Positions 1,896-45,294 of a stretch of DNA of 64,000 nucleotides are shown here, piece after piece. Numbering within the stretch: the first letter of the stretch is position 1; every line of letters starts with the position of its first letter. Source of the DNA: Minisyncoccota bacterium (GTDB lineage Bacteria; Patescibacteriota; Minisyncoccia; Phycocordibacterales; UBA9973); assembly GCA_041659785.1 (NCBI GenBank), contig JBAZXO010000001.1, forward strand, positions 241,649 through 305,648, given 5' to 3'. The notes under the pieces were generated by a model. It had not been told where the DNA came from, searched no databases, and worked only from the letters and a program-made list of their open reading frames with translations. Made by a program: the position numbers and the translations under genes.

Positions 1896-2222
1896 TCTGG
1901 GGTAGCTCAGCGGTAGAGCGGTCGCCTGTAAGCGAAAGTGCTAGCAGCTTTCTATCGAAAGATAGATCGAAAATGAGGTGAATTCGGGGAAACCCAAACT
2001 TATAATGAGTGGGCAATCCCGAGCCAAGCTCTAATAAAAAATAGAGAAGGTGTAGAGACTATCTCGCAAGAGAGTAGTGTTCCAATTAATTTGGAATCCG
2101 AAGCGCCTCACTTCTAAATTCTTTGAACAATCAAAGAACACGAAGATGATATAGTCCGTACCATTAGTAATAATGGAGAAAACGTAAGCGATTGGTCGTA
2201 GGTTCGATCCCTACCCCCAGAG
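1896..2222 (+). tRNA. tRNA (most consistent with Asn, anticodon GUU) interrupted by a group I intron. Exons 1896..1929 and 2185..2222.
   Basis: 5' exon TCTGGGG-TA-GCTC-AGCGGTA-GAGC-G-GTCGC-CTGT. 3' exon TAA-GCGAT-TGGTC-GTAGG-TTCGATC-CCTAC-CCCCAGA-G. Acceptor and anticodon stems pair only when 255 nt are removed. Splice follows U35 and the intron ends in G. Confidence 0.7.
1930..2184 (+). ncRNA. Group I self-splicing intron (cyanobacterial tRNA-Leu-intron-like, IC3-type) in a tRNA anticodon loop
   Basis: Contains GGGGAAACCCAAAC...GGGCAATCCCGAGCCAAGC and AGAGAAGGTGTAGAGACT blocks that match conserved P3-P7 core sequences of tRNA group I introns. Terminal G; upstream U for a P1 G.U pair; GCAG internal guide pairs with exon CUGU. 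Confidence 0.75.
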
Positions 2223-3945: not shown

Positions 3946-5337
3946 CTAATGATCCCCATTCCAACCAAAAAGTTTTCCTATGGAATCTGGAGTCTCACGC
4001 TTATGAGGGACCTTAACCATTCCATCTTGAACGACGATTTTAAGTGGTGCTGCGAGGAGGCAATGATGAGAAGCTAATCCATCCTGATATGCACCAGTAT
4101 CGAAAACTGCCACCAGCTGACCATCATCATCATGAAGTTTCGGCATAAGGATATAGTTACCTCCAGCAGTGTATTTATCATCCGAGTCACAGGTGCTTCC
4201 TGCAAGCCATACTGTCTTCAGGACGCCGTGCATATTGTTAGCTGGAATAACATGCCATTTCTGGTGTATTGCCCATGTATCCTTCAAATCATTCATAAAG
4301 CTGCCATCGATAATATACCAAGCCTTTGCATTTGCTTTCGGGATAGCCTTCTTTGAAAGAACTTTATAAATTGTAATCTGGGCTGGAGCAGCAATATATT
4401 GACCCCATTCCACAGCCAAGTTTGGATGCTTTATGCCTGCTTTATCTGACAAACTTTTTAATACTTTAATGATTTTACTGGAAACACCTTTCGCTGTGTA
4501 GAACTTTTTCTTTTCATAAGGAACACCAAAGCCTCCCCCTATGTCTAAGGTGTCGAGAGATGGGTGTGTTTTTTGAAGTTGCGTATAAATACTAAAGGCA
4601 TGCTTCACCCCATCTAGAATACTCTTTTGAGTTTTTATCTGAGAGCCGAGGTGATAATGCATTATTTTTAAATTTTTTATTTTACCTAAATCAAGTACAT
4701 CACTTTCCGAGAGACCAAAGCGGTCAAACTTTTTATCCCAATGTGTATCTGCTTTAATATCTAAGTCTACTCTCACTCCTACATCACCTTTATATTTAGA
4801 AATTCTTTCTACTTCTTCTAGGCTCTCAATAATAGGGACGATATTCATTCCTTTTGCTCGTAATTCTTCCACCAAATCTAAATATTGATCTGTCTTAGGA
4901 CCATTACAAAATACGCGAATTTTACTATTAAATTTTTCTCTCTCCCAGAGATTTTTTACTATCCAGAGCTCATTAGCTGAGGTTACTTCTAAGTTTGCGC
5001 CTTCAGAAAGAATTGGTAAGATAAATTCTTTATTTTGATTTACCTTCATTGGATAGTGATAAAAGAATTTTCCTTTATAACCATAAATCTTCATATAAGC
5101 CTGGAAATAACCAATGAGGTCTTTGAGTCTATCTTCAATAATGAAAGGAAAGATAACTTGGAGCGGGGTGCCATATTTATGTGCTAAATCACTTAAGTTG
5201 TAAATATGGTGGCCTTCGGTAGCGGTGAGCTCGCCATCTTTGTTCACGCCGAAAAACTGAGTGTTGAATTCATCAGCACCCAGTTTCCAAAATTTTTTCC
5301 AATTCTTCCCCGGTTTTTTTATTTTTTTCTTTGGCAT
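3946..5337 (-). CDS. PLP-dependent decarboxylase, alanine-racemase-fold group IV (Orn/DAP/Arg decarboxylase family)
   Basis: Lys in YHYPMKVNQN, HLGSQ, DIGGGFGV glycine loop, and GSTCDSDD Cys motif. Confidence 0.65.
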   Translation of the reverse strand: MPKKKIKKPGKNWKKFWKLGADEFNTQFFGVNKDGELTATEGHHIYNLSDLAHKYGTPLQVIFPFIIEDRLKDLIGYFQAYMKIYGYKGKFFYHYPMKVNQNKEFILPILSEGANLEVTSANELWIVKNLWEREKFNSKIRVFCNGPKTDQYLDLVEELRAKGMNIVPIIESLEEVERISKYKGDVGVRVDLDIKADTHWDKKFDRFGLSESDVLDLGKIKNLKIMHYHLGSQIKTQKSILDGVKHAFSIYTQLQKTHPSLDTLDIGGGFGVPYEKKKFYTAKGVSSKIIKVLKSLSDKAGIKHPNLAVEWGQYIAAPAQITIYKVLSKKAIPKANAKAWYIIDGSFMNDLKDTWAIHQKWHVIPANNMHGVLKTVWLAGSTCDSDDKYTAGGNYILMPKLHDDDGQLVAVFDTGAYQDGLASHHCLLAAPLKIVVQDGMVKVPHKRETPDSIGKLFGWNGDH

Positions 5338-5377
5338 TTAAGTAAAAACAAGTATACCCCCACACTTATTATAAGTC

Positions 5378-5415
5378 AAAAAAAAAAGTTGCTAGGTAAG
5401 ACCTAGCAACTTTTT
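5378..5415. terminator. Bidirectional rho-independent terminator
   Basis: A10-GTTGCTAGGTaagACCTAGCAAC-T5. Confidence 0.65.
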
Positions 5416-8400
5416 ACGCAACAAAATTCTCATTAATAATTCCCTTCTTCGCATCTATTAAACCAGAAGTATAAACAGTAGTATATGATTCATCTGGATT
5501 CTTGCGGTCTATGGTAATGTGATATTCGCCTTTAGCAAGCAGACAATAATAATGACCATATTTATCAGCAACACGGTGGAAGATTTCTTGCGGGAAGCCT
5601 TTTCTAAAGACACGAATGACAGCATATGATAAAGGAGCTTTAGTTGCAGAATCGATAATAGTACCGAAGGTCTTAGGTTTGAAACCAAGTAAGTGGAGAG
5701 CCAAAAGAATACCATAGACGATAAGGATAGCTAAGTTAAGTTTGTCTGGTCGAGATATGAAAAGTCCAATGACAGAGATGAGTCCTATATAGAAGAGAGC
5801 ATTTAGAGCAGCGTTAATGATGCGTGTATTCTTAGAGTAAAACATCATAAGTTTCTTATCTCTCTTCGCAAATTCATTCCAGTCGAAAGCGAGAGGGTCC
5901 ATCGGAATGTTTTTAATGATAACTTCGTTTGTACCCAAAAGAACTTCCCCGCCAAAATATAAATTATCATAAAGTTCATCACTCATTTTACCAGCAAGTT
6001 TTGCTGAAGGAGCTCGATAGTTAGTCTTCTTTGTAGAAATTTGATATGAACCAGGAGGAACAAGGAAACCAAAACGTCCATCCAGGTCTGTAATCGCTGT
6101 TTGAACTTCTTTACCAGTATTATCATTTAAAACTACATAAACTGGATCAAGTGGTTGTTTGGTGACACTGTCGTATACAGTTCCCCATGGCGCGCGTTTC
6201 TTTCTTAGGCCAAGAGACACAAGTAGGACACTCCAGAGTCGTAATATCATAAATGGGATATCTGCAAAAGAAGCTGCTTCTCCACCTACAGAGGCAAGCG
6301 CAATAGCACTACCTCCCCCTGCTCCGAGGGCTGTGACTGTAGTCGTTGTGGCGTTACCTACCGGTGTATCAGAAAATTCAGTAATATTTTTTCTAGTTGT
6401 AGTGATAGCTTTTTTGATTTCGGGTGTAAGAATAGAATTTACTAAATTAGATATAATTGTTTGTCCTGAATCAATAGAAGAATTACCTTCACCAGAACTT
6501 GAGCCACCAACACCAGAACTTCCTGCTCCACCTCCAGTGCCAGCACCTCCGCTTGTTCCAGTTCCACTTCCGGCACCAGAGCCTGATCCACCGGTGCTAC
6601 CACCCGTACCTGATCCACCGCCTGCGCCAGAAGAACCACTTCCCCCCGTTCCTCCACTTGTTCCAGAGCCTCCAGTTCCTCCTCCTGTTCCAGAGCCTCC
6701 ACTAGTATCTTCTCCACTTGTACCACTTTCTACTGTTACAACAACGCTTCCACTTCCTGTTCTTCCAAGACCACCAGTACATGTAAGAGTATACGTATAA
6801 ATTCCAACAGGAAGAGGGTTTGTCGTATAAGTTCCTGAGCCTTCTGTTGATCCAGACCAGTTTCCAGATTTTATACAACCATTAGTTACATTTTGCGTTG
6901 AAAATGTAATGACTGATGTCCCATTGACTGGAATAGATGTTGGATTGGCAGTAACGGTGACAACTGGAGCAAGGGGTGTTTGAAAATCTGTAATATTTTT
7001 AGTTGTAAAGGATAAAATAGAACCTTCAACTTTTCCACTTGAATTCTTCGCAACAGCGCGGAAATAATATGTAGTGTTCTTTGTGAGACCAGAAATCGTA
7101 TCAGAAAAATCACTAACAGCAGATCCTTGGCTGTTATGCGTCGTTTCATTATTTAAAATAGTTTCAGATGTTCCCCACTCAAACCAGCGTGTCGTATCAG
7201 AAGTGCCATTAGGATCCACATTCCCATTGAGTGTTGCATCTGTATCTGTAATAGATGTTGCACTGTTCGTTATAACTTTTGGTGTTTGCAAAATTATTCC
7301 ACCTCCGCCCGTAGGAGAAGGCGCACCAACATTTGTATCATATGATACTGTTACAGAAGATAATGTGGGCGTAGCAGCTCCGCCAGAAGAGAGAAATGCT
7401 TTATATTGAAAATATCTATCATTATCGCTAATAGTAAGAGGATGATTTGAAACAAAGGCAATATCGTTGTTTGCATCAAGGAAATAATCAGTACCATCAC
7501 AGGCTAAAGCAGGCCCGCACCAATTTGACCAGGTGACATTGTCTGCCGAAGAACGTACTTGAAATTTTACAATTTCAGTGGAAGATGTTCCACTAGTTGC
7601 CCAGGCTAATTTTGTAACTTTGTTTGTTGCAGAACTAGAATCAAAGACCGATGAAGTGAGGTTTCCACTTGCACCATACTGCGAATAATTTATGGTGACA
7701 TCACTTAAGGCGGGAGTGACAGTAGTATCGGTAGTGGCAAGGTTAGCACGATATTGAATATAACGATTACCAGCAAGTGCGCCAATACTTCCTCCACTAA
7801 CTACATTTGTCGTCCAAGCTGTCCATGTACCATCCGGTATAGCTACATTGCCTGCTCGCACATCCACTGTAATACTGGTAAGTGCAGGTAATGTCGTTGT
7901 GTATGCAAGAGTTGTAAAATTTGCTTTTGCTCCTGTGTCTATTACCGCAGAAGTGAAGGTGCCGGAAGCTGCGTACGCAGTAGCAATATTAACTTTACTG
8001 ACAATATTGTCAAAACCACTTGAAACCCACATTGAGTCTGTAAAACTATCAAAAATAAGATTACCTGGACTAGTGCCAACAATATAAGTGTTCAAAACAG
8101 CACCGGTATTGATATCAATTTGACTAATTGTATTATCCACAACATTTGGTGTCCATATTGAACTATTCAAATCATCAAAAGCGGGATAATTGGGACCAAT
8201 GCCAACAGCATAAGTACCGACTATGGCTCCAGTACTAACATTAACTTTAATAACTGTATTATTATTTGCATCTGTGACCCACACAGAATTTGTAATACTA
8301 TCAAAAACTACGCCGCCAACACCAGATGTACCCACAGTGTACGTGCCCAGAACAGCACCAGTCGTAGCATTAAGTTTAATAAGATTATTACTAACAGTAC

Positions 8401-9262
8401 TACTTGTTACCCACACAGAGCCTGTAAAACTATCAAAAGTAATACCAATTGGACCATCAATTACATAATCATTTTTTGTACCCGTATTTATATCTACTTT
8501 GCTAACAGTGTTTGCGCCAAAACCCAAGTTTGCAACCCACACTGAGTTGGTCAAACTATCAAAAGTAATATCTTGCGGTCCTAAACCAACAGCGAAAGTG
8601 CCAACAATAGCACCAGTATTTACATTAATTTTACTAATATTGTCACTACCACTATTTGTCACCCATATGGAGTTAGTAACAGTATCAAATGAGAGACGTG
8701 AAGGTCCAATTCCAACAGTATAAGTACCAACAACAGCACCAGTCGTAGCATTAAGTTTAGTAACTGTGTTACTTCCATTGTTCGCCACCCAAATAGAATT
8801 AGTAACATTATCAAAAAGCACACCAAAAGGACTAGGGCCTACAGCATAATCAGTCTTGGCGCCAGCAGAAGAAGAAGCAGAAAGCCCTACGCTCGCTCCG
8901 ACACCTGAACCAGAAACTACTGTGCTGGAATTTGTGCCATTTGTAAATCCTCCTCCAGAAACTATAGGAGAAGCTGGAGTGATGCTTGTAGTGCCGTCGT
9001 CAGTAAATGCATAGCTAGTAGATGGCAGAGTAACAGTAGCAGATGCTGAAGTTCCTGTTTCTGTATTGTATTCTGTCCAGCCTGTTTGGTTGAGCGCATG
9101 CGTAGCAGTGTTTACTGTGGCTCCACCTAACCAAGATGACTGGAGAAAAGTCGCTGCAGCCGCTTGAGTGAGTTTACCGTAGAAAAAAAGACCGCTCATC
9201 CCTGCGAATATTATTGCAAAGGTTGCGAGAATAAATTGTATAGATGCGTGGCCTTTTTTCAT
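5414..9262 (-). CDS. Large surface protein. N-terminal signal/anchor, YVTN-type beta-propeller repeats, Gly/Ser/Thr-rich linker, C-terminal membrane segments interleaved with two CarboxypepD_reg-like domains.
   Basis: Repeats of the ~40-aa motif VGxxPxxIxFDxxTNSIWVxN. Low-complexity SGGSGTGGGTGGSG run. VYDSVTKQPLDPVYVVLNDNTGK...DGRFGF matches the carboxypeptidase-regulatory-like fold. Hydrophobic helices near the C-terminus. Confidence 0.75.
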   Translation of the reverse strand: MKKGHASIQFILATFAIIFAGMSGLFFYGKLTQAAAATFLQSSWLGGATVNTATHALNQTGWTEYNTETGTSASATVTLPSTSYAFTDDGTTSITPASPIVSGGGFTNGTNSSTVVSGSGVGASVGLSASSSAGAKTDYAVGPSPFGVLFDNVTNSIWVANNGSNTVTKLNATTGAVVGTYTVGIGPSRLSFDTVTNSIWVTNSGSDNISKINVNTGAIVGTFAVGLGPQDITFDSLTNSVWVANLGFGANTVSKVDINTGTKNDYVIDGPIGITFDSFTGSVWVTSSTVSNNLIKLNATTGAVLGTYTVGTSGVGGVVFDSITNSVWVTDANNNTVIKVNVSTGAIVGTYAVGIGPNYPAFDDLNSSIWTPNVVDNTISQIDINTGAVLNTYIVGTSPGNLIFDSFTDSMWVSSGFDNIVSKVNIATAYAASGTFTSAVIDTGAKANFTTLAYTTTLPALTSITVDVRAGNVAIPDGTWTAWTTNVVSGGSIGALAGNRYIQYRANLATTDTTVTPALSDVTINYSQYGASGNLTSSVFDSSSATNKVTKLAWATSGTSSTEIVKFQVRSSADNVTWSNWCGPALACDGTDYFLDANNDIAFVSNHPLTISDNDRYFQYKAFLSSGGAATPTLSSVTVSYDTNVGAPSPTGGGGIILQTPKVITNSATSITDTDATLNGNVDPNGTSDTTRWFEWGTSETILNNETTHNSQGSAVSDFSDTISGLTKNTTYYFRAVAKNSSGKVEGSILSFTTKNITDFQTPLAPVVTVTANPTSIPVNGTSVITFSTQNVTNGCIKSGNWSGSTEGSGTYTTNPLPVGIYTYTLTCTGGLGRTGSGSVVVTVESGTSGEDTSGGSGTGGGTGGSGTSGGTGGSGSSGAGGGSGTGGSTGGSGSGAGSGTGTSGGAGTGGGAGSSGVGGSSSGEGNSSIDSGQTIISNLVNSILTPEIKKAITTTRKNITEFSDTPVGNATTTTVTALGAGGGSAIALASVGGEAASFADIPFMILRLWSVLLVSLGLRKKRAPWGTVYDSVTKQPLDPVYVVLNDNTGKEVQTAITDLDGRFGFLVPPGSYQISTKKTNYRAPSAKLAGKMSDELYDNLYFGGEVLLGTNEVIIKNIPMDPLAFDWNEFAKRDKKLMMFYSKNTRIINAALNALFYIGLISVIGLFISRPDKLNLAILIVYGILLALHLLGFKPKTFGTIIDSATKAPLSYAVIRVFRKGFPQEIFHRVADKYGHYYCLLAKGEYHITIDRKNPDESYTTVYTSGLIDAKKGIINENFVA

Positions 9263-9367: not shown

Positions 9368-12300
9368 CTATGGAGCAACTGGTGCAGGGTCAGGAGCAGG
9401 AGCAGGCGCTGGTGCAGGATCTGGTGTAGGCGCTGGGTCAGGGACGGGTACAGGATCTGGTGCAGGCGCTGGGTCAGGGACGGGTACAGGATCTGGTGCA
9501 GGCGCAGGATCTGTACAAACATTATTTACTAAAGTTTGTGGAGCTGTACAAGTTGGAACTACTGGTACTGGATCAGGTGTTGGAGCAGGAACAGGGTCGG
9601 GTACGGGGGCTGGAGCTGGTGAAGGATCTGGAGTAGGTGTTGGTGTAGGAGTTACACTAGCACCAGCATTAGAGATCAGAGCATCAAGTTGCGCTTTTGT
9701 AATACATGTCTTCCCTCCTACGTCATCGGTTACACACAAAGACTTCGTATTGACTTGTCCTGCAAAAATATCCCCTATCCCATTCGTAGCATCTGCTAAC
9801 CAAACAGTAACTTTTGCAAAAACATTTTTAAAGAATGCAGTAGCGAAAGATTCTGAAGGAGAACCTGGTAATGGGGTGACGGTACCTGCGACTCCTTCAA
9901 TATTTAGATTCATTTCTTGAATTGCTTTGACCGTGGTAGACAATATAGCATTCGTGTCTAATCCATAAGGCTTACCTTCTGCATCATGAGAGGCATATTC
10001 TGGAGAAATAGCAGCGACTTCTTCAGAGATGAATCCGAAATGGATTGCACTTCCCATATTCATCTCAGGCTTAAAGGTGTAAGAAACGGGACGAAGGTTC
10101 ATTAAGCTAGAGAGACCATTGTTTAAATCTGTTATGTCATTTTTAAATCTTTGAGAAGATATGGTACAGATTATATCTCCTGAAGCATTTGCAGATAGCG
10201 TTCCAGCTGTCGTACAACCTTTCTGCTGGACAACTCCTGTGTTCGTGACACTAAACTTAGACACTGATCCCACCTGTGCATCAATCAGAAGCTGAGCGCC
10301 TGAGCCGACAGCTGTTTCTGTTCGGTTTATGAGCAAGTCTGTGTTGGCGGCAGTGCTGGCGACTTGGTTATATGTTGGAATAATTGAAACAGCAGAACCT
10401 GCACCAGCTGTATTTGTAGAAGTGCTACGTCCTAGATTTATTGGAAATGTCCCATTTGTTCCACTACCCCCAACATAACGAATATCTCCATTGGTTAAGA
10501 CGTTATTTATATTCGCACCACCAACAATACTTGTGTAACCGTCTGAACCTCTTACACTAAACTTACTTACCCCTCCCACCTGCAAATCCATAAAAAGTGA
10601 AGCTCCATTGCTTGCTGTATTCGTTACATTTAATTTAATGGCAGTGGGTGTTCCTGTCGTATTCCAAGTTTGTGCAAGATTGAGAACAGACCCTGCGAGT
10701 GAGCCTGAGCCTGCGAGGGTGGTGTCAAGGATGTCGAGTTTAGAAGCAGGTGTCGTCGTTCCGATGCCGACGTTGCCAGCGAAATAATTAGTGCCACCTG
10801 CTGAATAAATAGCATAATTGCTTGTGCTACCCTTCGTTACATTACCTATATATAAACCGTAGTCATTGGTGACTGCACCAGTTCCAGTTATGTCATCAAG
10901 TTTGACACCATAAACATTTGTCAGTGTCCCCGCCCCAGTGATAGTTGGAAATGAATGAAACCCAACAAACCTATCGGTAACATTAGCACTACCATTAAAA
11001 ATATTTCTTGCTTGGTATGCAACAAAATGGTTTTCTGCCAAACCATTAGTAAGAGTCGCATGGGCATCGAAATCAGCGTAACCAAGATTAGTATCTGTTG
11101 TATTTAAAACTGACCAATCTTCGAATGCATGTCTGTCAATTGTTGTTCGAGTAGCATTTACAGAAAAATTACCATACGTGGTTGAACTACCAACAGAAAT
11201 GTCTCCACTTGAATTTATTCTAAGACGCTCGGTCGCATTTGTTCCGAAAACTAACGGGGTGGCACCAGTCGAATATATTTCTAAATCATTAGCTTGTGAT
11301 GAATTTTGAATAATTTGAACAGGAAACGTCAGCCCGCTAATACCAGCATCGGATTTATGTCTAATCACCAACGATTGATTGCTAGCAATACGCCCTGAAG
11401 CAAATGAACCACCGGTCGTCGTATTGTTCGCATTCCCACTTCCGTCAGAAACTATATCCAACTTAAATCCCGGGCTCGTCGTCCCGATGCCGACGTTGCC
11501 AGCAGTATCTATCGCCATTTTTGCACCTTCACTATCATCTATATGAAAATATAACGGTGCGTTAGTTGCACTATTAGAAGAATGAATATTTAGGTCATAT
11601 GGCGAATCAATGTTTTTTCTGATTTTAGCGTTTAACCCAGAACCTGAAGAAACTCCATTACCTCCTAGATAAAACGAGTTACTTCCAGCAGCAGAATAAG
11701 AAAAAATTTCACCAAGAACTTGCAATTTAGTTAGTGGTGCGGTGGTCCCTATTCCGACGTTGCCACTTTTTAAATATATAGCGGGGGAATCAACAGCACT
11801 ACCTCTTGTTCCTATAACTCCAATGGTTGGGGTAACTCCGTTATCAACATTTATTGACCCAACGTAAGTTGAATAATCGGGGTTATTATTAAATCCTATA
11901 TCTATTCTTCCTTGTGGAACAGTCGGAGATGTCCCTGTAGTACCAGTTATCCATAATTTTGAATTTGTGGGAATAGTAGTACTCCCTCCTGAATTTGAAC
12001 CAATACTTAACAAAGCCCCTGGCGCCGTCGTCCCGATGCCCACATTCCCCGTACTCCCTACTTGAAGTCCAGTATAAGCAATATTGTAAGCTTGGGAGGC
12101 GACAGTTTGAGAAGTTGAAACAGTGAGGCTTGTGGTTGAGCCAAATGCAGTAATTGTTCCTGCACTTGTTCCGTTTGCAAATACGAACTGTGAACCCACC
12201 ATTGCTGAAGTCCACACTGTACCCACGCCTGTGACAGTGGTGAGAGATTGTGATGCTGTACCTGTACTGTATTGGGTTGGGGTGACGGAGAGGATGCCAC

Positions 12301-15300
12301 TTGGTATGACCGTTCCAATCCCTACAGAACCCTTTAATGCAGTTGTAAGAATGCTATCATTTCCAAGAACAACACTATTGCTACCTATGCCTATTGCACT
12401 TGCTCCGATAACTATCTGATTCGTCTGTCCATCTGCATTTGCTTTTGAATCATTGCCTAAAAATAATGAACTTGAACCTATGGAATTTGAAGAGAAACCA
12501 TCAGCAATAAATCTTCCAGCATTGTAGCCTACCGCTGAATTATTAGAGCCTGTGGTGTTGGCCCTAAGAGCAAAGGTGCCTATAGCATTGTTATTAATAC
12601 CAGTTGTATTGAATCGGAGGGATTGATAGCCCATAGCATTATTACTACTACCAGAAGAGTTGGCAGCAAGAGATTCGGCCCCCAGAGCACTATTATTTCC
12701 TCCACTGCTTGCTGAAGCAAGAGCACTAGCACCAACAGCAGTATTATAGCTGGTACCGTTAGAATAAAGCGCTTGATAACCAATAGCTGTGTTGTTACCT
12801 CCGGCGACATTAGAGAATCCACTTTGATAACCTACGTAGGAATTATAATAATTCGCAGTTCCCGCTTGATAACCTAAAGAAGTTAAAAATGATGCATTAT
12901 CAAAATCAATTAATCCTGCCACTTGTAGAAGGTTGTTCGGTGTTATCGTACCGATACCAAGATTTCCATTAACCGTCAACTGTTGCCCTGTGAGTGATCC
13001 AGCTACACCAGAGAATTTACCATACAAAAGCGAGAATGCTTTATCGTTAGCTAAAGAAGATTGTTGTACATTGTTTATATAAAAAGCATTTGAACCTGTT
13101 TCGTATTTACCAGCTCCGTATCCTAATGCAACATTACCACTTCCAGTACTGTTAAGGAGAAGCGAATTGGCTCCGTTAGCTGTATTATTATTACCAGTAG
13201 TATTGTTACCCAAGGCACTTATACCATTAGCCACATTCTGGACTCCAGTGGTATTTAAAAAAAGAGTCTGATAACCAACAGCTACATTTGAATATCCGGT
13301 AGTATTAGAAAAAAAAGATTGAAAACCAATTGCAGTGTTATAACCTGCTATACTGGTACTTCCTACCGCAGAAGATAACCCTGTTTGGTAACCAATAAAA
13401 GTATTATTAATTGCACCTGCAACTATGTTCTTCCCAGCTTGATAACCAAGCTTGGTATCAAAATCTGTATTATTAAAATCAATTAAGTTTGCTACCTGGA
13501 TTAAATTGTTCGGCGTCGTCGTCCCTATCCCCACATTTCCGGTACTCCCCACCTGAAGTCCCGTATACCCAATATTGTAAGCTTGTGATGCGACAGTTTG
13601 AGAAGTTGAAACAGTGAGGCTTGTGGTTGAGCCAAATGCAGTGATTGTTCCTGCACTTGTTCCGTTTGCAAATACGAACTGCGAACCTATCATAGCGGAA
13701 GTGAATGTCGTACCTACACCAGTGATTGTAGTCAAAGATTGTGACGCTGTGCCTGTACTGTATTGGGTAGGGGTGACGGAGAGGATGCCAGCAGGAACAA
13801 GAGTTCCAATACCCAAGTTTCCATTTATTGTTAACTGTTGTCCTGTGAGAGATCCAGCTACACCAGAGAATTTACCGTAGAGGAGAGAATAATTTCGATC
13901 ATTAGCTAAAGAAGGTTGATATATATTGTTTACATAAAAAGTATTGGAACCGGTTTCGTTGTAGCCAGCTGCAAGTCCCAAGGCAACATTGCTATTCCCT
14001 GTGGAGTTATTGTTGAGGGCTTGCATTCCACTAGCGGTATTATAGGAGCCTGTGGTGTTGGATGTAAGAGCATACATTCCACTCGCGGTGTTTTGAGTAC
14101 CTGTGGAGTTATTGTAGAGGGCTTGCATTCCACTCGCAGTATTGTAGGAGCCTGTAGTGTTGGAGAAAAGAGCATACGTTCCACTAGCGGTGTTGAAATT
14201 GCCGTTGGTGTTGGAGTATAGGGCCTGCACTCCACTGGCAGTATTATAAGAGCCTCCAGTGTTAGAAAAAAAAGATTGATAACCAAATGCACTGTTAAAA
14301 TCTGCAGCACTAGTACTTAATGTTGCGCTAGATGTTCCTGCTTGATAACCAATAAAGGTATTATTTTGAGCATTAGCTACTATATTTTTTCCTGCTTGAT
14401 ATCCAAGCTTGGTATTAAAATCTGTATTATTAAAATCAATTAAGTTTGCTACCTGAATAGCGTTGTTGGGTGTTATTGTCCCTATCCCTACTCTGTGGTT
14501 CAGACTATCCACAAAAAGAGAGCTAGTATCTACGGTAAAATTATGAACTCCCAAATCTACATTGGATGTTCCGCCGGTGTAAGGAATATATCCTGAAAGA
14601 TCTAGCACTAAATTCCCGCTACCTAAAATAGAACCGCCATTGATAGTTTTGATATTTGTACCTGAAACTAGAGTGGCTTGTTTGTTATTAAAAGTATTCC
14701 AGTCAGTGGTTGTTAAATATCCATCTACCAATGTCGTAGCAGCGCCTAATTTTGTTTTAATAGTAGCTTGTGTTTCATCACCAGTGTTCGTGCCTGAAGA
14801 AGTACCTGAGAAAGTTCCTGATTGAGTAGCCAGAGTCCCAAGCACGGTAGTATCTAAAGCGAATGTACCAGCAGCAGTCATTTTTACAAAAGATGGTGAT
14901 ACATATGACAGGCCAGATACAGAAGTTAAATTTGCAGAAGAATCTTGTTTCCCATTAAAAGTATTCCAATCCGTATTTGAAAGTGCGCCTGTGGTAGAAG
15001 TGGAAGCTAAGGCTAAGGAGAGTACTTGTGTAGCAAGCGAAAGACCATTTGCTGTACCAAGTGTTACGGGATTATGGTTACTAGCTACTAAGGTTTCTAT
15101 CTGATTATATACAGCATTCTTAGACGGTGCATGAGTCGTGTCAGCATTCCAGCTCACGCCGTAAGCTACATCGCTAATACTCGTAGAAGTAAGTGGTGAA
15201 CGAACATCACAGTTTACATCTGTCGGTAAACATTCTGGGTTTAAAGTATCACCCGGATTATAGAAAGTGCCATTCCATACTGCGAAAACTGTTTTAGAAA

Positions 15301-15385
15301 AAAGAGAAATGACAATAATAGCCATAGCTAAAATAATCCTTTTTCTCATTGATGTATTTTTTATTTTTGAAAATATATTTTTCAT
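9368..15385 (-). CDS. Giant (2005 aa) secreted tail-fibre-like repeat protein with a C-terminal peptidase S74 / intramolecular chaperone auto-processing domain and a Pro/Asp/Ala-rich tail
   Basis: Signal peptide. Dozens of NTAxGxxALxxNTTG and GNVGIGTTTP repeats. SSQRFKNDI...LRPVSYTFK...HFGFISEEVAAISPE...LDTNAILSTTVKAIQE matches the endosialidase/tail-spike chaperone domain. C-terminal PTPTPDPSPAPAPVPDP repeats. Confidence 0.8.
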   Translation of the reverse strand: MKNIFSKIKNTSMRKRIILAMAIIVISLFSKTVFAVWNGTFYNPGDTLNPECLPTDVNCDVRSPLTSTSISDVAYGVSWNADTTHAPSKNAVYNQIETLVASNHNPVTLGTANGLSLATQVLSLALASTSTTGALSNTDWNTFNGKQDSSANLTSVSGLSYVSPSFVKMTAAGTFALDTTVLGTLATQSGTFSGTSSGTNTGDETQATIKTKLGAATTLVDGYLTTTDWNTFNNKQATLVSGTNIKTINGGSILGSGNLVLDLSGYIPYTGGTSNVDLGVHNFTVDTSSLFVDSLNHRVGIGTITPNNAIQVANLIDFNNTDFNTKLGYQAGKNIVANAQNNTFIGYQAGTSSATLSTSAADFNSAFGYQSFFSNTGGSYNTASGVQALYSNTNGNFNTASGTYALFSNTTGSYNTASGMQALYNNSTGTQNTASGMYALTSNTTGSYNTASGMQALNNNSTGNSNVALGLAAGYNETGSNTFYVNNIYQPSLANDRNYSLLYGKFSGVAGSLTGQQLTINGNLGIGTLVPAGILSVTPTQYSTGTASQSLTTITGVGTTFTSAMIGSQFVFANGTSAGTITAFGSTTSLTVSTSQTVASQAYNIGYTGLQVGSTGNVGIGTTTPNNLIQVANLIDFNNTDFDTKLGYQAGKNIVAGAINNTFIGYQTGLSSAVGSTSIAGYNTAIGFQSFFSNTTGYSNVAVGYQTLFLNTTGVQNVANGISALGNNTTGNNNTANGANSLLLNSTGSGNVALGYGAGKYETGSNAFYINNVQQSSLANDKAFSLLYGKFSGVAGSLTGQQLTVNGNLGIGTITPNNLLQVAGLIDFDNASFLTSLGYQAGTANYYNSYVGYQSGFSNVAGGNNTAIGYQALYSNGTSYNTAVGASALASASSGGNNSALGAESLAANSSGSSNNAMGYQSLRFNTTGINNNAIGTFALRANTTGSNNSAVGYNAGRFIADGFSSNSIGSSSLFLGNDSKANADGQTNQIVIGASAIGIGSNSVVLGNDSILTTALKGSVGIGTVIPSGILSVTPTQYSTGTASQSLTTVTGVGTVWTSAMVGSQFVFANGTSAGTITAFGSTTSLTVSTSQTVASQAYNIAYTGLQVGSTGNVGIGTTAPGALLSIGSNSGGSTTIPTNSKLWITGTTGTSPTVPQGRIDIGFNNNPDYSTYVGSINVDNGVTPTIGVIGTRGSAVDSPAIYLKSGNVGIGTTAPLTKLQVLGEIFSYSAAGSNSFYLGGNGVSSGSGLNAKIRKNIDSPYDLNIHSSNSATNAPLYFHIDDSEGAKMAIDTAGNVGIGTTSPGFKLDIVSDGSGNANNTTTGGSFASGRIASNQSLVIRHKSDAGISGLTFPVQIIQNSSQANDLEIYSTGATPLVFGTNATERLRINSSGDISVGSSTTYGNFSVNATRTTIDRHAFEDWSVLNTTDTNLGYADFDAHATLTNGLAENHFVAYQARNIFNGSANVTDRFVGFHSFPTITGAGTLTNVYGVKLDDITGTGAVTNDYGLYIGNVTKGSTSNYAIYSAGGTNYFAGNVGIGTTTPASKLDILDTTLAGSGSLAGSVLNLAQTWNTTGTPTAIKLNVTNTASNGASLFMDLQVGGVSKFSVRGSDGYTSIVGGANINNVLTNGDIRYVGGSGTNGTFPINLGRSTSTNTAGAGSAVSIIPTYNQVASTAANTDLLINRTETAVGSGAQLLIDAQVGSVSKFSVTNTGVVQQKGCTTAGTLSANASGDIICTISSQRFKNDITDLNNGLSSLMNLRPVSYTFKPEMNMGSAIHFGFISEEVAAISPEYASHDAEGKPYGLDTNAILSTTVKAIQEMNLNIEGVAGTVTPLPGSPSESFATAFFKNVFAKVTVWLADATNGIGDIFAGQVNTKSLCVTDDVGGKTCITKAQLDALISNAGASVTPTPTPTPDPSPAPAPVPDPVPAPTPDPVPVVPTCTAPQTLVNNVCTDPAPAPDPVPVPDPAPAPDPVPVPDPAPTPDPAPAPAPAPDPAPVAP
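9400..9520. repeat. ~30-bp tandem repeats encoding the Pro/Asp/Ala-rich C-terminal tail
   Basis: ggtgcaggcgctgggtcagggacgggtacaggatct is repeated head-to-tail. Confidence 0.7.
12021..12300. repeat. Intragenic ~280-bp direct repeat (second copy 13513..13792, ~90% identical)
   Basis: Long near-identical stretch, e.g. cagtttgagaagttgaaacagtgaggcttgtggttgagccaaatgcagt. The antisense ORFs 12123..12419 and 13614..13880 in the track translate almost identically. Confidence 0.8.
13990..14260. repeat. Tandem ~60-bp repeats encoding NTASG-type 20-aa repeats
   Basis: gcttgcattccactagcggtattataggagcctgtggtgttgga units recur four times. Confidence 0.7.
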
Positions 15386-17888: not shown

Positions 17889-19286
17889 TTACCTCAAGTA
17901 TCCTTTTAAAAATTCCTCTTTAAACTCAAAGAATTTATCATCTAAAATTGATTGTCTGATTTTTTTAACTAAATTTACAATAAAATATAAATTATGAATT
18001 GATGCCAGTGTCCCCGCGAGCATTTCTTTGCCATGGAAAAGGTGCGCGATATAGGCGCGAGAGTATCGTGGAGTACCAGAAGTTTCTTTGCGGGGTGTCT
18101 CGCAGGCTGACGAGCCGAGAGGCAGCGCTGTGTCAGCAGACACAGACAGCGACCCCGAAAAGAAATCTTCTGGCGCGGAGCAAACATAACATCCACAATC
18201 ATCTTCGATAGGACCAAGGTCATTTCTGAATTTTGCATTGGTAATTATTATTTTCCCCTTTTTAGTATAAATAGTTCCATTTCTCCCGAGCCGAGTCGGC
18301 AAAACGCAATCAAATAAATCCACACCATTTTCTATGCCCATAAATAAATCTTCTGGCTCACCGATGCCGAGCAAGTGCCTAGGTTTGTCTTCTGGAAGAA
18401 TTTCATTTACCCATTTTACAGCGGTAGACATATCTTCTTTCGCAAAGCTCCCCCCAATACCGAAACCATCGAAATATTTTCCTTCCACATTTATTTCCGA
18501 AATAATTTTCGCAGATTGTTTACGTAAAGATTCTTCTCGCCCACCCTGCACGATACCAAAAAGAGCCGGATCAGAAACAGAAGCGGACGAACGGTCGACG
18601 TTGCGAAGCAGGAGATCCTGAGAATGCTTCTGTTTCTGAGTTAATAATTTTTGATGCTCTCTTAAACTCCTCTCTGCCCAACGATGTGTACGCTCGAGCG
18701 CCTCGCCTTGATATTTCGAATCCTCTGTCGGAGAAGTACATTCATCAAAAGCAAAAATTATATCTGCGCCTAAGTTGTGTTGAATTTGAATTGATTTCTC
18801 GGGAGTGATGTAATGGATAGAGCCGTCCAAGTGAGATTTAAAAGATACACCATCTTGACCAATTTTCGCCAGGCGTGGCGCATCACTGTCGTCAAAACGT
18901 TCAGGGATCAAAAGTGATGGGTCAGTTATTTTCGTAATTTTTGAAATATCTTTCCCGTAGGCAGCACCAAGTGAAAAAACTTGAAACCCTCCACTATCCG
19001 TCATAGTGGGCGCAATACCGCCATCATTTCGCCGCCAATTCATAAAATTACCAATACCTCCTGCGTCACGTACTATCTCGTCGCCTGGCTGTAAATATAA
19101 ATGATAAGTATTACCGAGCACTACTTGCGTGCCAGCATCCCTCACCTGCTCGGGATTTAAAGATTTCACTGTAGCCTTAGTGCCCACAGCGACAAAAGCT
19201 GGAGTTAAAATATCTCCATGCGGAGTAGTTATAATTCCCACCCTTCCCAGACCATCTTTTAATTTTTTTTCTATTTTGAAAATCAC
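17889..19286 (-). CDS. tgt: Queuine tRNA-ribosyltransferase
   Basis: GRVGIITTPHGDILTPAFVAVGT, VVLGNTYHLYL, CGCYVCS zinc site, LPTRLGRNG. Confidence 0.85.
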   Translation of the reverse strand: MIFKIEKKLKDGLGRVGIITTPHGDILTPAFVAVGTKATVKSLNPEQVRDAGTQVVLGNTYHLYLQPGDEIVRDAGGIGNFMNWRRNDGGIAPTMTDSGGFQVFSLGAAYGKDISKITKITDPSLLIPERFDDSDAPRLAKIGQDGVSFKSHLDGSIHYITPEKSIQIQHNLGADIIFAFDECTSPTEDSKYQGEALERTHRWAERSLREHQKLLTQKQKHSQDLLLRNVDRSSASVSDPALFGIVQGGREESLRKQSAKIISEINVEGKYFDGFGIGGSFAKEDMSTAVKWVNEILPEDKPRHLLGIGEPEDLFMGIENGVDLFDCVLPTRLGRNGTIYTKKGKIIITNAKFRNDLGPIEDDCGCYVCSAPEDFFSGSLSVSADTALPLGSSACETPRKETSGTPRYSRAYIAHLFHGKEMLAGTLASIHNLYFIVNLVKKIRQSILDDKFFEFKEEFLKGYLR

Positions 19287-21109: not shown

Positions 21110-22381
21110 TTATGCGTTCTTCTCTTTAAGTATTTTTAATAATTCATCGAGCAATACAATCTTCCCTTTCTCTTCTGTGCGCTTTTTTAATTCTATGCCC
21201 CCTACTGATGAGTCCTTCATACTTCTTGCGGAGACAACAGCACGAAAAGGAATACCGAGTAAATCTGCATCAGAAAACTTTTCTCCAGCAGACAAATCTT
21301 TTCTATCATCAAATAAAACTTCCACACCTGCCTTGAGCAAGCTCTCGTAAACTTTTTCTGCTTCTTTCAAGACTGCCTTATCTTCTCCTAGAGAAAGTAA
21401 ATGAACAGTAAATGGTGCGATGGATTCTGGCCAAACCATACCTTTATCATCAGATAAGACTTCCACCACTGTACCCATCAATCTTCCTAAGCCAATACCA
21501 TAAGATCCCATCACCACTAATTTTTCTTCACCATTTTCATTTTTGTATTTTAGGTCAAAAGGTTCTGAAAACTTTGTTCCAAGTGAAAAGATATTGCCTA
21601 CTTCGACTGCTCTTTTTTCAACTAAATTTTCTTTGTTTAATTTAAGCTCTGCAATAACTTCGTCGTTATAAACCTCTTTGTTTATAGCGATACCTGAATT
21701 TTCATCTAAGTAAACAGTATCCTCTCCAACAGAAGTTATCGTTTGAAATTCGTGAGAAAATTTTGAAAAAGTTCCCCCAGAAGCAAAAGTCACATAAGTT
21801 AAGTGCCCAATGCCAACTCTTTTAAAAATATTTTGATAAGCTATTTTCGCTTTTTCATAAAAAACATTGTGCTCTTCCTCGTCCTTCGTAAAAGAATAAA
21901 GAGCTTTCCAATAGAACTCTCTGCCTCTCATTATTCCAGATTTACTCCTTGTTTCATTTCGAAAAATATTTTTAAAGTCGTATGGGAAAATTGGTAAATC
22001 TTTATAAGAGCTCACATATTGTTTTAAAATATTTGAATAAGCTTCTTCGTTAGTAAACGACAAACCAACTTCTCCACCATTTTTTAATTTTGTTTTAAAC
22101 CAAGTATCGACAACTTCATCACTCCATCTGTTCGATTTTTCCCAAACTTCTTTATTTTGAAGCACAGAAGTTCTCATTTCGGTTCCACCAATTTTATCCA
22201 TCTCATCTCTAATTATATTTTCTACCTTATTCAAGACACGTAAACCAAGAGGCAAAAATGAGTATACGCCAGCCATCTCTTTATGAATAAAGCCACCCCT
22301 TATTAAGAGTTCCGCGTTTTTAGAGGTTTCGTCTGCTGGGGCCTCTTTCCTGGTTTTAGTAAAAAGTTTAGATTGTCTCAT
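21110..22381 (-). CDS. proS: Proline--tRNA ligase (bacterial type lacking the INS editing domain)
   Basis: N-terminal LLIRGGFIHK...GVYSFLPLGLRVLNKVENIIR matches ProRS. Only 423 aa. Confidence 0.85.
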   Translation of the reverse strand: MRQSKLFTKTRKEAPADETSKNAELLIRGGFIHKEMAGVYSFLPLGLRVLNKVENIIRDEMDKIGGTEMRTSVLQNKEVWEKSNRWSDEVVDTWFKTKLKNGGEVGLSFTNEEAYSNILKQYVSSYKDLPIFPYDFKNIFRNETRSKSGIMRGREFYWKALYSFTKDEEEHNVFYEKAKIAYQNIFKRVGIGHLTYVTFASGGTFSKFSHEFQTITSVGEDTVYLDENSGIAINKEVYNDEVIAELKLNKENLVEKRAVEVGNIFSLGTKFSEPFDLKYKNENGEEKLVVMGSYGIGLGRLMGTVVEVLSDDKGMVWPESIAPFTVHLLSLGEDKAVLKEAEKVYESLLKAGVEVLFDDRKDLSAGEKFSDADLLGIPFRAVVSARSMKDSSVGGIELKKRTEEKGKIVLLDELLKILKEKNA

Positions 22382-24522: not shown

Positions 24523-24595
24523 GCCGGCATAGCTCAGTTGGTAGAGCACTTCTTTTGTAAAGAAGATGTCCGGGGTTCGATCCCTCGTGCCGGCT
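24523..24595 (+). tRNA. tRNA-Thr(UGU)
   Basis: GCCGGCA acceptor, anticodon loop TTTGTAA, T-loop TTCGATC. 73 nt. Confidence 0.9.
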
Positions 24596-24621
24596 CCCTT
24601 AAAAAACTAAAATTTAAAAGA

Positions 24622-40201: not shown

Positions 40202-40612
40202 TTTTAAAATTTATTCAATTGCTTTCTTTGGGATTCTCTTCATCATCTCTATTTTAGTCTGAGGACCAACTTTACCGTCAGCAGTTAATCCATTGTCACT
40301 TTGCCATTTCACAATTACTGCAATTGTCTTAGGTCCTAACTTACCGTCTAATACTAAACCAAGACCTAGATCATCATTAAGGAATCTCTGTAGTTCTTTA
40401 ACTGCATCTCCTTTACTTCCAACCTTAAGAGTAGAGGTACCGAAGTCGTAAGTTAAGGCTCCTGAACCTTGTGAAGGAGTTTGATTTGAGTTGTTTACAC
40501 AGAGTTGACCTGTTTGAGTGTTGTAGATGTTTCCTCCAGAGCAACCGAGTGCTGGTGGTGTTGGAAACTTTGTACAAGATTCTCCTGTTTGGGTATTGAA
40601 GAGGTTACCATC
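40202..40612. repeat. ~410-bp perfect duplication (3' coding end plus downstream flank of A1, equals 43328..43738 of A2)
   Basis: Identical sequence starting ttaaaatttattcaattgctttctttggg through ...ttgaagaggttacc. Confidence 0.85.
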
Positions 40613-41377
40613 AGAGCAGCCTTGTGGTGATGGAGGTGGATTTTGAGATTGAGTTTGATTTGGAGTTGTGCAAACATTATTAATTAACACTTGTGGTGGT
40701 GTACAGGTAGGTGGTGGGGTGCTGACAGTTCCAGAAGCTCCAATGTTTAAAACTACACTGCCTGTTTCACCTACTGTTTCACCTAAGGTATTTAATACAC
40801 CAGATGCGCTAGAATCTATAATGTTTCCAGTCCAATATGGCTGATAACTGCCAGTTACGGTGGGTAAAAGATCAGAACGAATAGCATGGAAATAGAGATT
40901 TATCATATATGATCCTGTAGGTATCGTTGTTGCTTTAGTGTAACAATTCCATCCTGTATCCAAGGAAGGAATACGGCATGGACTTGAAAAAGATTGATCA
41001 CGGTTTGGATCAAGAATGTATGCAGTACCTACATTCCATAAATAACTTCCAGTGTTAGGTACATTGTCTGCCACAAGGTAATAAGTTGTAGGTATTTGTG
41101 ATATTTGTTGACTGCTAGGACTAGATGTAGTACTAGGTTTTGTCAGAATTATTTGACCTTTTACGCTATCTTTAAGACCAGTTGTTCTCCAGTTAATTGT
41201 TTGACTACTTCCAGATGCCCATGTGCTATTGGTCGTTGGTGAAGTAATAGTTGCAGTTAATTCTGACGCAGTTGGATTAGGAACAGTCTGTGCTTTTATA
41301 ACAGATGTAGAATATCCTACCCCAAACAAAACAACTAAAACGAGAAGCGATATTTTTATATTTTTAAATATTTTCAT
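40211..41377 (-). CDS. Secreted cell-wall-binding protein, paralog A1 (signal peptide, Kre9/KNH-like Ig domain, CxxGxxxNTQTGxxC repeats, C-terminal PG_binding_1)
   Basis: ITSPTTNSTWASGSSQTINW...NVPNTGSYLWNV. LKVGSKGDAVKELQRFLN...DGKLGPKT...DGKVGPQT. Confidence 0.8.
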   Translation of the reverse strand: MKIFKNIKISLLVLVVLFGVGYSTSVIKAQTVPNPTASELTATITSPTTNSTWASGSSQTINWRTTGLKDSVKGQIILTKPSTTSSPSSQQISQIPTTYYLVADNVPNTGSYLWNVGTAYILDPNRDQSFSSPCRIPSLDTGWNCYTKATTIPTGSYMINLYFHAIRSDLLPTVTGSYQPYWTGNIIDSSASGVLNTLGETVGETGSVVLNIGASGTVSTPPPTCTPPQVLINNVCTTPNQTQSQNPPPSPQGCSDGNLFNTQTGESCTKFPTPPALGCSGGNIYNTQTGQLCVNNSNQTPSQGSGALTYDFGTSTLKVGSKGDAVKELQRFLNDDLGLGLVLDGKLGPKTIAVIVKWQSDNGLTADGKVGPQTKIEMMKRIPKKAIE

Positions 41378-41455
41378 AATCTTGTCCGCCTCTGGCGGAT
41401 TTATTAACTTACTAATAATTTATTAACTAATAATAATATTGACCTTTTATAAAAT
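41326..41455. repeat. ~130-bp near-perfect duplication (5' coding end plus upstream region of A1, equals 45168..45294 of A2)
   Basis: Identical aacaaaacaactaaaacgagaagcgatatttttatatttttaaatattttcataatcttgtccgcctctggcggatttattaac... Confidence 0.85.
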
Positions 41456-43249: not shown

Positions 43250-43293
43250 AAGATCTAATATTAACTACTAATACAAATATTATATCACACATA

Positions 43294-43323
43294 GAAAAAA
43301 CCACTCTTAAAAGTGGTTTTTTC
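43294..43323. terminator. Rho-independent terminator after paralog A2
   Basis: AAAAAACCACTcttaaAAGTGGTTTTTT. Confidence 0.65.
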
Positions 43324-43336
43324 TAAATTTTAAAAT

Positions 43337-45220: not shown

Positions 45221-45294
45221 AATCTTGTCCGCCTCTGGCGGATTTATTAACTTACTAATAATTTATTAACTAATAATATTGACCTTTTATAATT

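Follow-up and report, generated by a model that had tools for sequence, protein, structure and literature searches.

The group I introns of CAU and CCU tRNAs are inserted between positions 36 and 37 of the anticodon loop, and those of tRNA-Leu(UAA) between positions 34 and 35. The Azoarcus intron is inserted at 36/37, after CAU, and has GUG as its guide; CAU is likewise the 5′ exon mimic of the Azoarcus ribozyme. In introns of subgroup IA, P7.1/P7.2 occupy the position between P7 and the 3′ strand of P3 (P3′). The tRNA hosts named for bacterial group I introns are Leu, fMet, Ile2 and Arg (PMC3984707, PMC8450103), and a bacterial tRNA-Asn group I intron is not named in the literature open to full-text reading. 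Owing to group I introns, tRNAs were missed by the standard finders in complete CPR genomes (PMC8172020), and tRNAscan-SE is not designed for such introns (PMC8450103).

The window (i.e. the whole stretch of 64,000 nucleotides analysed in this work) belongs to a bacterial chromosome of about 37% G+C and contains a tRNA-Asn(GUU) gene, the anticodon of which is split by a group I intron. Rfam cmscan of the whole window placed RF00028 (Intron_gpI) at 1930-2177 of the + strand with 75.9 bits (E 1.7e-17), above the gathering score of 50 and with an alignment that spans the model from end to end (1-253 of 253), while Rfam treats group I introns as one single family without subgroup models. A chance match is rejected because of this E value, the z-score of the minimum free energy (MFE) fold (−5.65) and the strong covariation across 125 homologues (see below). 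The Rfam alignment ends 7 nt before G2184 and draws P1 wrongly, inside the intron.

By default, ARAGORN called no tRNA at this locus. Its intron mode, applied to the unspliced segment 1850-2270, gave tRNA-Asn(gtt) with i(36,255), and the joined segments 1896-1929 and 2185-2222 gave a canonical cloverleaf of tRNA-Asn(GUU). A preliminary description, made from the letters of the DNA, had proposed a group I intron that leaves a canonical tRNA-Asn(GUU) after removal of 255 nt (1930-2184) and that is inserted between anticodon positions 35 and 36, a site different from the classical 34/35 site of tRNA-Leu(UAA). The intron type was confirmed by the full-length covariance-model match and by the homologues, the rebuilt tRNA by both ARAGORN procedures, and the insertion site by ARAGORN and by uninterrupted orthologues; the spliced length of 73 nt given there has to be corrected to 72 nt (34 + 38). 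The core blocks quoted in that description are located at 1987-1994 (GGGAAACC), 2012-2029 (GGCAATCCCGAGCCAAGC) and 2043-2060 (AGAGAAGGTGTAGAGACT), and the intron does end in G (G2184), follows a U (U1929) and carries a GCAG guide (1944-1947), as had been stated. The parts of the gene are as follows.

1896-1929, + strand: 5′ exon of tRNA-Asn(GUU) (ARAGORN join and intron mode; uninterrupted orthologues L307/L303), comprising the acceptor 5′ strand, the D arm, the anticodon stem strand GUCGC and C32, U33, G34 and U35
1930-2184, + strand: group I intron of 255 nt without an ORF (RF00028; covariation in 125 homologues; empty site in L307/L303)
2184, + strand: terminal guanosine (omega-G) and 3′ splice site (7-nt loop; P9.0 adjacency; empty-site boundary)
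2185-2222, + strand: 3′ exon, comprising U36, A37 and A38, the anticodon stem strand GCGAU, the variable loop, the T arm, the acceptor 3′ strand and the discriminator G2222
2229-2262, + strand: intrinsic terminator directly after the tRNA, an 11-bp stem (2229-2254, with 5 G-C pairs) followed by a T-run

The intron thus lies between U35 and U36 of the anticodon. Its boundaries are set by four lines of evidence, namely the U1929·G1944 pair in P1, the position of G2184 at P9.0, the helix pairing in the homologues and the intron-free relatives. G2184 is the sole G whose use yields an anticodon loop of 7 nt (ARAGORN finds a defective 6-nt loop when 256 nt are deleted instead), and it is taken to be the terminal guanosine because P9.0 pairs the 2 nt after P7 with the 2 nt before the last G. 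G34, U35, U36 and the discriminator G73 are identity elements of tRNA-Asn in E. coli, and all of them are present here, the discriminator being G2222. The CCA end is not encoded by the gene, which reads G73-CCCA (GCCCA). ORFs of at least 50 amino acids are absent from 1617-2279, as they are from 1930-2184 on either strand; no homing-endonuclease gene is contained in the intron, the G+C content of which is 39%. A simple scan upstream of the tRNA found no sigma-70-type promoter, and a BLAST search of the locus against a phage database gave no match; for the neighbouring decarboxylase, a look-up of the exact protein gave no record.

Besides the intron, Rfam detected tRNA-Ala(TGC) at 1554-1627 (− strand) and tRNA-Thr(TGT) at 24523-24597, three RNAs in all. 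The protein-coding genes of the window include rpoB, rpoC, dnaG, rpoD, gyrB, thrS, proS (423 aa), tgt, nusB and those for RNase R and a PheS-related ligase of 380 aa; the unusually small size of several of the proteins points to a reduced genome. Short or atypical housekeeping proteins are encoded at 21110-22381, 50499-52634 and 59808-60950; ProRS has 423 aa and an SMC-like protein 711 aa, and neither the SrmL nor the mitochondrial-type PheRS model gives the 380-aa PheS-related ligase a score that reaches its cut-off. Tgt (17889-19286, − strand, 465 aa) aligns with its 368-position model in three stretches apart from one another and may therefore carry insertions; it acts on G34 of GUN tRNAs, and G34 of tRNA-Asn is among its substrates. 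Four consecutive paralogous ORFs (388, 597, 627 and 387 aa) occupy 40211-46458 (− strand) and have as their sole common part a C-terminal SleB-like/peptidoglycan-hydrolase-like segment. For two very large ORFs, 5414-9262 (− strand, 1282 aa) and 9368-15385 (− strand, 2005 aa), family matches are practically lacking, the sole one being a sub-threshold CarboxypepD_reg-like match in the 1282-aa ORF. The ORF of a large serine recombinase (54-1616, + strand, 520 aa) runs into tRNA-Ala(TGC), and homologues of this recombinase adjoin tRNA-Asn genes with and without an intron at many related loci (L197, L186, L228, L161, L238, L246, L301, L278, L320, L364 and L310); the region around these tRNAs resembles a hot spot of integration.

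The secondary structure of the intron was set on the window sequence and then mapped to a MAFFT alignment of 125 tRNA-Asn introns. The defined helices are P1 and its extension, P2 to P6, P6a, P7 (which forms the pseudoknot), two extra hairpins, P8, P8a, P9.0 and P9; apart from the P1 extension, they are located as follows (percentages are those of paired cells in the alignment).

1944-1947, + strand: internal guide sequence GCAG, pairing with exon C32-U35 (1926-1929) as P1, with the wobble U1929·G1944 at the 5′ splice site
1951-1956/1961-1966, + strand: P2 hairpin with a GAAA tetraloop (1957-1960); 97.1% paired, 6/6 pairs changed on both sides
1974-1980, + strand: 5′ strand of P3, pairing with 2104-2110; 98.8% paired, 5/7 pairs compensatory
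1984-2051, + strand: P4-P5-P6 domain (homologue alignment)
1984-1989/2017-2022, + strand: P4; 99.5% paired
1993-1996/2010-2013, + strand: P5, a simple hairpin; 76.9% paired
2023-2024/2050-2051, + strand: P6; 100% paired
2029-2033/2042-2046, + strand: P6a; 93.7% paired
2055-2061, + strand: 5′ strand of P7 (G2055, bulged A2056, G2057-A2061); 100% paired and essentially invariant in the 125 introns
2062-2097, + strand: two extra hairpins between P7 and P3′, 2062-2065/2070-2073 (GCAA loop) and 2079-2085/2091-2097
2104-2110, + strand: 3′ strand of P3 (homologue alignment)
2111-2114/2142-2145, + strand: P8, with the internal loop UAAA/CAC; 98.6% paired
2119-2126/2131-2138, + strand: P8a, within 2111-2145
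2152-2157, + strand: 3′ strand of P7, inside the conserved J8/7-P7 block GAUAUAGUCC
2158-2159/2182-2183, + strand: P9.0; 84.7% paired, both pairs covary, GU/AC in the window vs AC/GU as the commonest form
2161-2166/2171-2176, + strand: P9 with a GUAA tetraloop (2167-2170), enclosed by P9.0

Standard pairs occupy 88.3% of the 7636 cells of the 125 introns, compared to 34.8-43.6% when the 3′ partners were slid by 1-3 columns, and the covariation score is 0.362 compared to 0.046-0.109 in the slid controls; the observed measures of pairing and covariation were reached by none of 500 shuffles. Changes on both sides were found in 56 of the 74 pairs. Compensatory changes occur in P2, P3, P4, P6a, P8 and P9.0, while P7 is invariant; the P3-P7 pairing, including the P3/P7 pseudoknot, on which the preliminary description had staked its group I assignment, was therefore recovered. 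Together with the empty site described below, these comparisons establish the anatomy of the intron, its boundaries and its conservation in evolution. Each criterion of group I membership that can be examined in a sequence agrees with the assignment. By analogy with G264-C311 of Tetrahymena, G2057-C2156 is the predicted guanosine-binding site.

The U·G pair of P1, proposed in the preliminary description and recovered in the homologues as well as in the MFE fold, is present in 125/125 introns and the three adjacent pairs in 123-125/125, a conservation that is partly imposed since CTGT was required by the search pattern; GCAG lies inside the first 40 nt of the intron in 126 of 127 members. P10, which would form beside P1, has just 2 bp in the window and no contiguous pairs in 56/126 members, and it was dropped as evidence for the 3′ splice site because it is not conserved; P9.0 and the empty site were used instead. 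GNRA tetraloops close P2 in 116/125 introns and P9 in 95/125 (GAAA and GUAA, respectively, in the window). The window P8 reads CUUC/GAAG vs CACC/GGUG in the consensus, which is a double compensation. About a third of the introns have a receptor-like motif, CCUAA(A/G)...(U/C)AUGG, in P8 (canonical CCUAAG...UAUGG in 13/125, the relaxed form in 42/125); the window has the variant UCUAAA...CACGA, and its internal loop UAAA/CAC deviates from the canonical 11-nt receptor. The segment between P7 and P3′, of about 40-42 nt, is an insertion relative to the Rfam consensus: its two hairpins have all of their 11 pairs changed on both sides and about 75% of the cells paired. It is at least 25 nt long in 87/125 introns; within the tRNA-Asn class, most members from bacteria keep it and those on viral contigs lack it.

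The MFE fold of the single sequence, in which the pseudoknot cannot form, has −80.2 kcal/mol (z = −5.65 relative to 200 shuffles) and recovers P1, P2, P3, P5, P6a, both inserted hairpins, P8/P8a and P9. The two halves of the exon anticodon stem pair directly beneath P1 in this fold. They probably align the exons as in the Anabaena pre-tRNA, in which anticodon-stem pairing is required according to the title of Zaug, McEvoy and Cech 1993 (listed in PMC3984707).

When metagenomes were scanned for the uninterrupted junction GTCGCCTGTTAAGCGAYTG, at least 120 contigs matched. The spliced tRNA of the window is near-identical to the uninterrupted tRNA-Asn of L264, L307 and others, and many uninterrupted genes differ from it by one compensated acceptor pair. 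The exons differ from L307 solely in U3-A70 (C3-G70 in L307), a single compensated pair as expected for a working tRNA; the 5′ exon equals that of L307 and L303 except for acceptor-stem differences, of which L303 has several. At the site of insertion L303 and L307 read GGTCGCCTGT immediately followed by TAAGCGATTGG (CCTGT/TAAGCG), and an intron sits at exactly that bond in the window (255 nt), L197 (236 nt) and L142 (248 nt). L303 and L307 have a tRNA-Ala(TGC)/tRNA-Asn pair (divergent or adjacent) beside genes for a DUF192 protein and a decarboxylase, and the spacer upstream of the tRNA in L307 resembles that of the window (82% over 105 nt). L142, a Saccharibacteria MAG, has the same decarboxylase and DUF192 (60% aa identity) neighbours, so the split gene is syntenic. 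The nearest intron among the matches listed is that of L197, a Candidatus Saccharibacteria MAG (79% identity over 242 nt). Together with the gene content of the window, these relatives suggest a small-genome, Saccharibacteria-like host (CPR/Patescibacteria). Judged by decarboxylase identity at the amino acid level, the intron-free L303 (89.7%) and L307 (83.4%) are closer to the window than the intron-bearing L142 (66.4%); L197 is not comparable in this respect. Such a sporadic pattern is the one expected of an element that is gained and lost, and the intron is optional in its lineage.

Since the intron has no ORF, it would move by reverse splicing, by recombination via the near-invariant exons after DNA uptake, or with help provided in trans. 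An 8-nt repeat, GTAAGCGA, is found at 1928-1935 and 2184-2191 and was considered as a target-site duplication. This reading was rejected because L197 and L142, the closest relatives, lack the repeat, which is therefore not a required feature; it probably reflects a strand of the P1 extension in the intron that resembles the 3′ exon.

The occurrence of the intron class was followed with two patterns. A host-neutral core pattern (GAGCCAAG...AAGGTGTAGAGACTA) was present in at least 120 viral contigs (L001-L120), the hosts of which are apparently mostly tRNA-Leu(UAA) with insertion at 34/35, some CAU tRNAs with insertion at 36/37, and others; the automatic host calls for these contigs are noisy (13 loci under strict and 50 under loosened settings, with some implausible anticodons) and serve qualitative use only. 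A tRNA-Asn pattern, i.e. D-arm, CUGU and the intron core at the right distance, matched 19 viral contigs and at least 119 species-representative genomes. The 5′ splice site was set after CUGU, every downstream G was tried as the intron end, and a join was accepted if ARAGORN gave a tRNA of class-I length with an anticodon starting with the exon GU; this explicit join test was used because the ARAGORN intron mode miscalled several homologues as Tyr, His, Asp or SeC. Of 140 matches 127 were resolved (window included), all 127 being tRNA-Asn(GUU) with a 3′ exon starting with UAA and with introns of 179-352 nt (median 231). Of the 13 others, most are truncated where the contig stops, and in several a final G followed by TAA can be seen.

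The same host and site are thus found in at least 126 other public sequences (genomes and phage contigs). The preliminary description was right in suggesting that the intron family has a further, distinct tRNA host but understated its extent, as these sequences make the intron a member of a widespread class that is not peculiar to the source genome. About half of them come from CPR bacteria; other phyla and large phages supply the remainder. By record title, CPR lineages account for 43 of the 80 genome matches listed, among them Saccharibacteria, Paceibacterota, Nomura-, Davies- and Adlerbacteria, and the matches outside the CPR include Omnitrophota, Burkholderiales, Betaproteobacteria, Delta- and Gammaproteobacteria, Elusimicrobia, Spirochaetia and Binatia, although some of the latter assignments may reflect binning errors.

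Several members deserve separate mention. The viral contigs L135 (142 kb) and L136 (103 kb) have a split tRNA-Asn in the tRNA array of a genuine large phage. L135, in which it lies at 2428-2639, encodes a head maturation protease and Ser, Met, Leu and Phe tRNAs. On L136 the split tRNA-Asn (6770-6994) is directly abutted by the ORF of an HNH endonuclease (7037-7600). All phage group I introns known in 2014 were in protein-coding genes, according to a review of that year (PMC3984707). L202, a Candidatus Vecturithrix MAG, has two tandem copies of the split tRNA-Asn (4777-5045 and 5130-5399, − strand). In L148, a Patescibacteria MAG, an intron of this class follows CUGU at about 5513-5661 (− strand), but UAA is not the start of the 3′ exon, and none of the joins that end in G yields a canonical loop of 7 nt; the host may be a different GUN tRNA, or the copy may have degenerated.

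We propose the following course of splicing. The precursor would be transcribed from the AT-rich spacer and end at the terminator (2229-2262). GCAG (1944-1947) would pair with exon C32-U35 and thereby form P1 with its U1929·G1944 wobble, while the halves of the exon anticodon stem would pair under P1 and draw the splice sites together. With P3-P9, including the P3/P7 pseudoknot, as the putative catalytic core, a free guanosine in the P7 pocket would attack the bond after U1929; G2184, placed by P9.0, would then take the pocket, and the 3′-OH of U1929 would attack after G2184, joining U35 to U36. End processing and CCA addition would complete the 72-nt tRNA plus CCA. Both this chemistry and splicing in vivo are deduced by analogy with known group I introns. 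If C32-U35 are locked in P1 in the precursor, enzymes that act on the anticodon loop, e.g. Tgt on G34, would therefore act only after splicing. Taken jointly, it is very probable that the locus holds an ORF-less group I intron in tRNA-Asn(GUU), that it is spliced by these steps and that it is optional in its lineage.

Could the splice sites or the host have been misassigned, the 5′ site being after U1939 or the host another GUN isoacceptor? Rfam draws P1 as GAAAGU.../...GCUUUC inside the intron, the repeat GTAAGCGA creates a superficial ambiguity at the junctions, and the ARAGORN intron mode called several homologues Tyr, His or Asp; nevertheless, a 7-nt loop together with U at −1 and a terminal G results solely from removing 1930-2184, the uninterrupted orthologues show the same junction, the covariation of P9.0 brackets G2184, all 127 resolved members (window included) are Asn(GUU) at class-I length, and G73, which belongs to the Asn identity elements of E. 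coli, is the discriminator. We regard such a misassignment as extremely improbable. Somewhat less remote, albeit still very unlikely, is that the intron is a decayed relic that has lost splicing and that this tRNA-Asn copy is a pseudogene. Splicing is deduced from sequence, P10 is weak, the receptor-like loop of P8 is non-canonical in the window, and uninterrupted alleles are abundant in related organisms, so that the loss of this copy would be tolerable if another one exists. Against decay, none of the core helices is disrupted in the window, which keeps all positions that are invariant in the 125 homologues, the exons are unchanged relative to working orthologues except for one compensated pair, the terminator is retained, and the split gene is kept at the syntenic locus of the more distant L142.

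Splicing might also require a protein cofactor or chaperone instead of being autonomous, which is compatible with the splicing course proposed above and which we consider unlikely. The A+T-richness of the intron (39% G+C) and its extra peripheral insert between P7 and P3′ would be in line with such a need, and many organellar group I introns do need proteins; however, small bacterial tRNA introns such as those of Azoarcus and Anabaena self-splice efficiently, the GNRA tetraloops for tertiary docking are present in the window, and neither the intron nor its vicinity has a maturase-like ORF. Guanosine-dependent splicing of an intact intron from tRNA-Asn(GUU) is thus the reading that we retain.

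Both the mechanism and the kind of element are familiar, and public data contain the class in abundance; the split tRNA-Asn is a common, little-described variant and not a one-off, and it does not overturn current understanding. Through it, a tRNA with a GUN anticodon joins the hosts of small bacterial tRNA introns, and a third position of the anticodon loop joins their insertion sites. The element is optional among close relatives, and its class is a single one that connects CPR bacteria with other phyla and with large phages. Since the standard finders miss the split tRNA-Asn, genomes of this kind will be scored as devoid of tRNA-Asn, and this false absence distorts inferences on completeness and codon usage in CPR bacteria and phages. 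RNA structural biologists may take an interest in these compact ribozymes, which have no ORF but a conserved extra insert between P7 and P3′. A more far-reaching view, tentative and in our estimate rather unlikely to hold in all its parts jointly, is that tRNA-Asn(GUU) U35/U36 is an undescribed third anticodon-loop insertion class of IC3-type introns that passes horizontally between large-phage tRNA arrays and numerous phyla of bacteria, possibly via free-standing HNH endonucleases (e.g. that of L136), and that it may reside in the sole tRNA-Asn gene of small-genome Saccharibacteria. Were the sole tRNA-Asn gene indeed split, the decoding of Asn codons would depend on the guanosine-dependent activity of a ribozyme, and so would the queuosine exchange that Tgt, encoded in the window, performs at G34.

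Assignment of the intron to subgroup IC3 is plausible from its architecture, which it shares with the small tRNA introns of bacteria, namely those in Azoarcus tRNA-Ile, in Agrobacterium tRNA-Arg and in the tRNA-Leu and tRNA-fMet of cyanobacteria. The core is compact and has no P5abc extension, P2 is present and L2 and L9 are GNRA tetraloops. A short J7/3 without helices, which we take to be a further IC3 feature from the structures of Azoarcus and Anabaena, is not seen, as the insert of the window forms two hairpins.

Comparison with the IC3 intron in the pre-tRNA-Ile(CAU) of Azoarcus sp. BH72 shows that it is likewise small, ORF-less and located in the anticodon loop of a bacterial tRNA. The two introns have in common the P2 GAAA tetraloop, a GNRA L9 and, presumably, the core blocks AAUUCGG(G/C)GAAACC, GGCAA..CCGAGCCAAGC and GAAGGUGUAGAGACUA; P8, of the receptor type in Azoarcus, has a receptor-like variant in the window, and the P9 region of the introns on the viral contigs L128, L130 and L135 (...AGUCCAGAGAGUGAUGAAAGU...) is very like that of Azoarcus. 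The host is tRNA-Asn(GUU) in the window and tRNA-Ile2(CAU) in Azoarcus, and the window intron is inserted at 35/36, after GU, with a guide (GCAG) that pairs with CUGU. It is about 50 nt longer than its Azoarcus counterpart and has the 42-nt two-hairpin insert between P7 and P3′.

The intron of the cyanobacterial tRNA-Leu(UAA) (Anabaena PCC 7120) shares with the window intron the location in the anticodon loop and the core family, including the blocks GAGCCAAG...GGUG(C/U)AGAGACU. Both types are sporadically present or absent among relatives, and reliance on pairing of the exon anticodon stem, a feature of Anabaena, is also predicted for the window by the MFE fold. They differ in their host tRNAs and in the bond of insertion (U34/A35 in the Anabaena type, U35/U36 in the window), and while the Anabaena type is found in cyanobacteria and plastids, the tRNA-Asn class has its main distribution in CPR bacteria, in further uncultured phyla and in phages.
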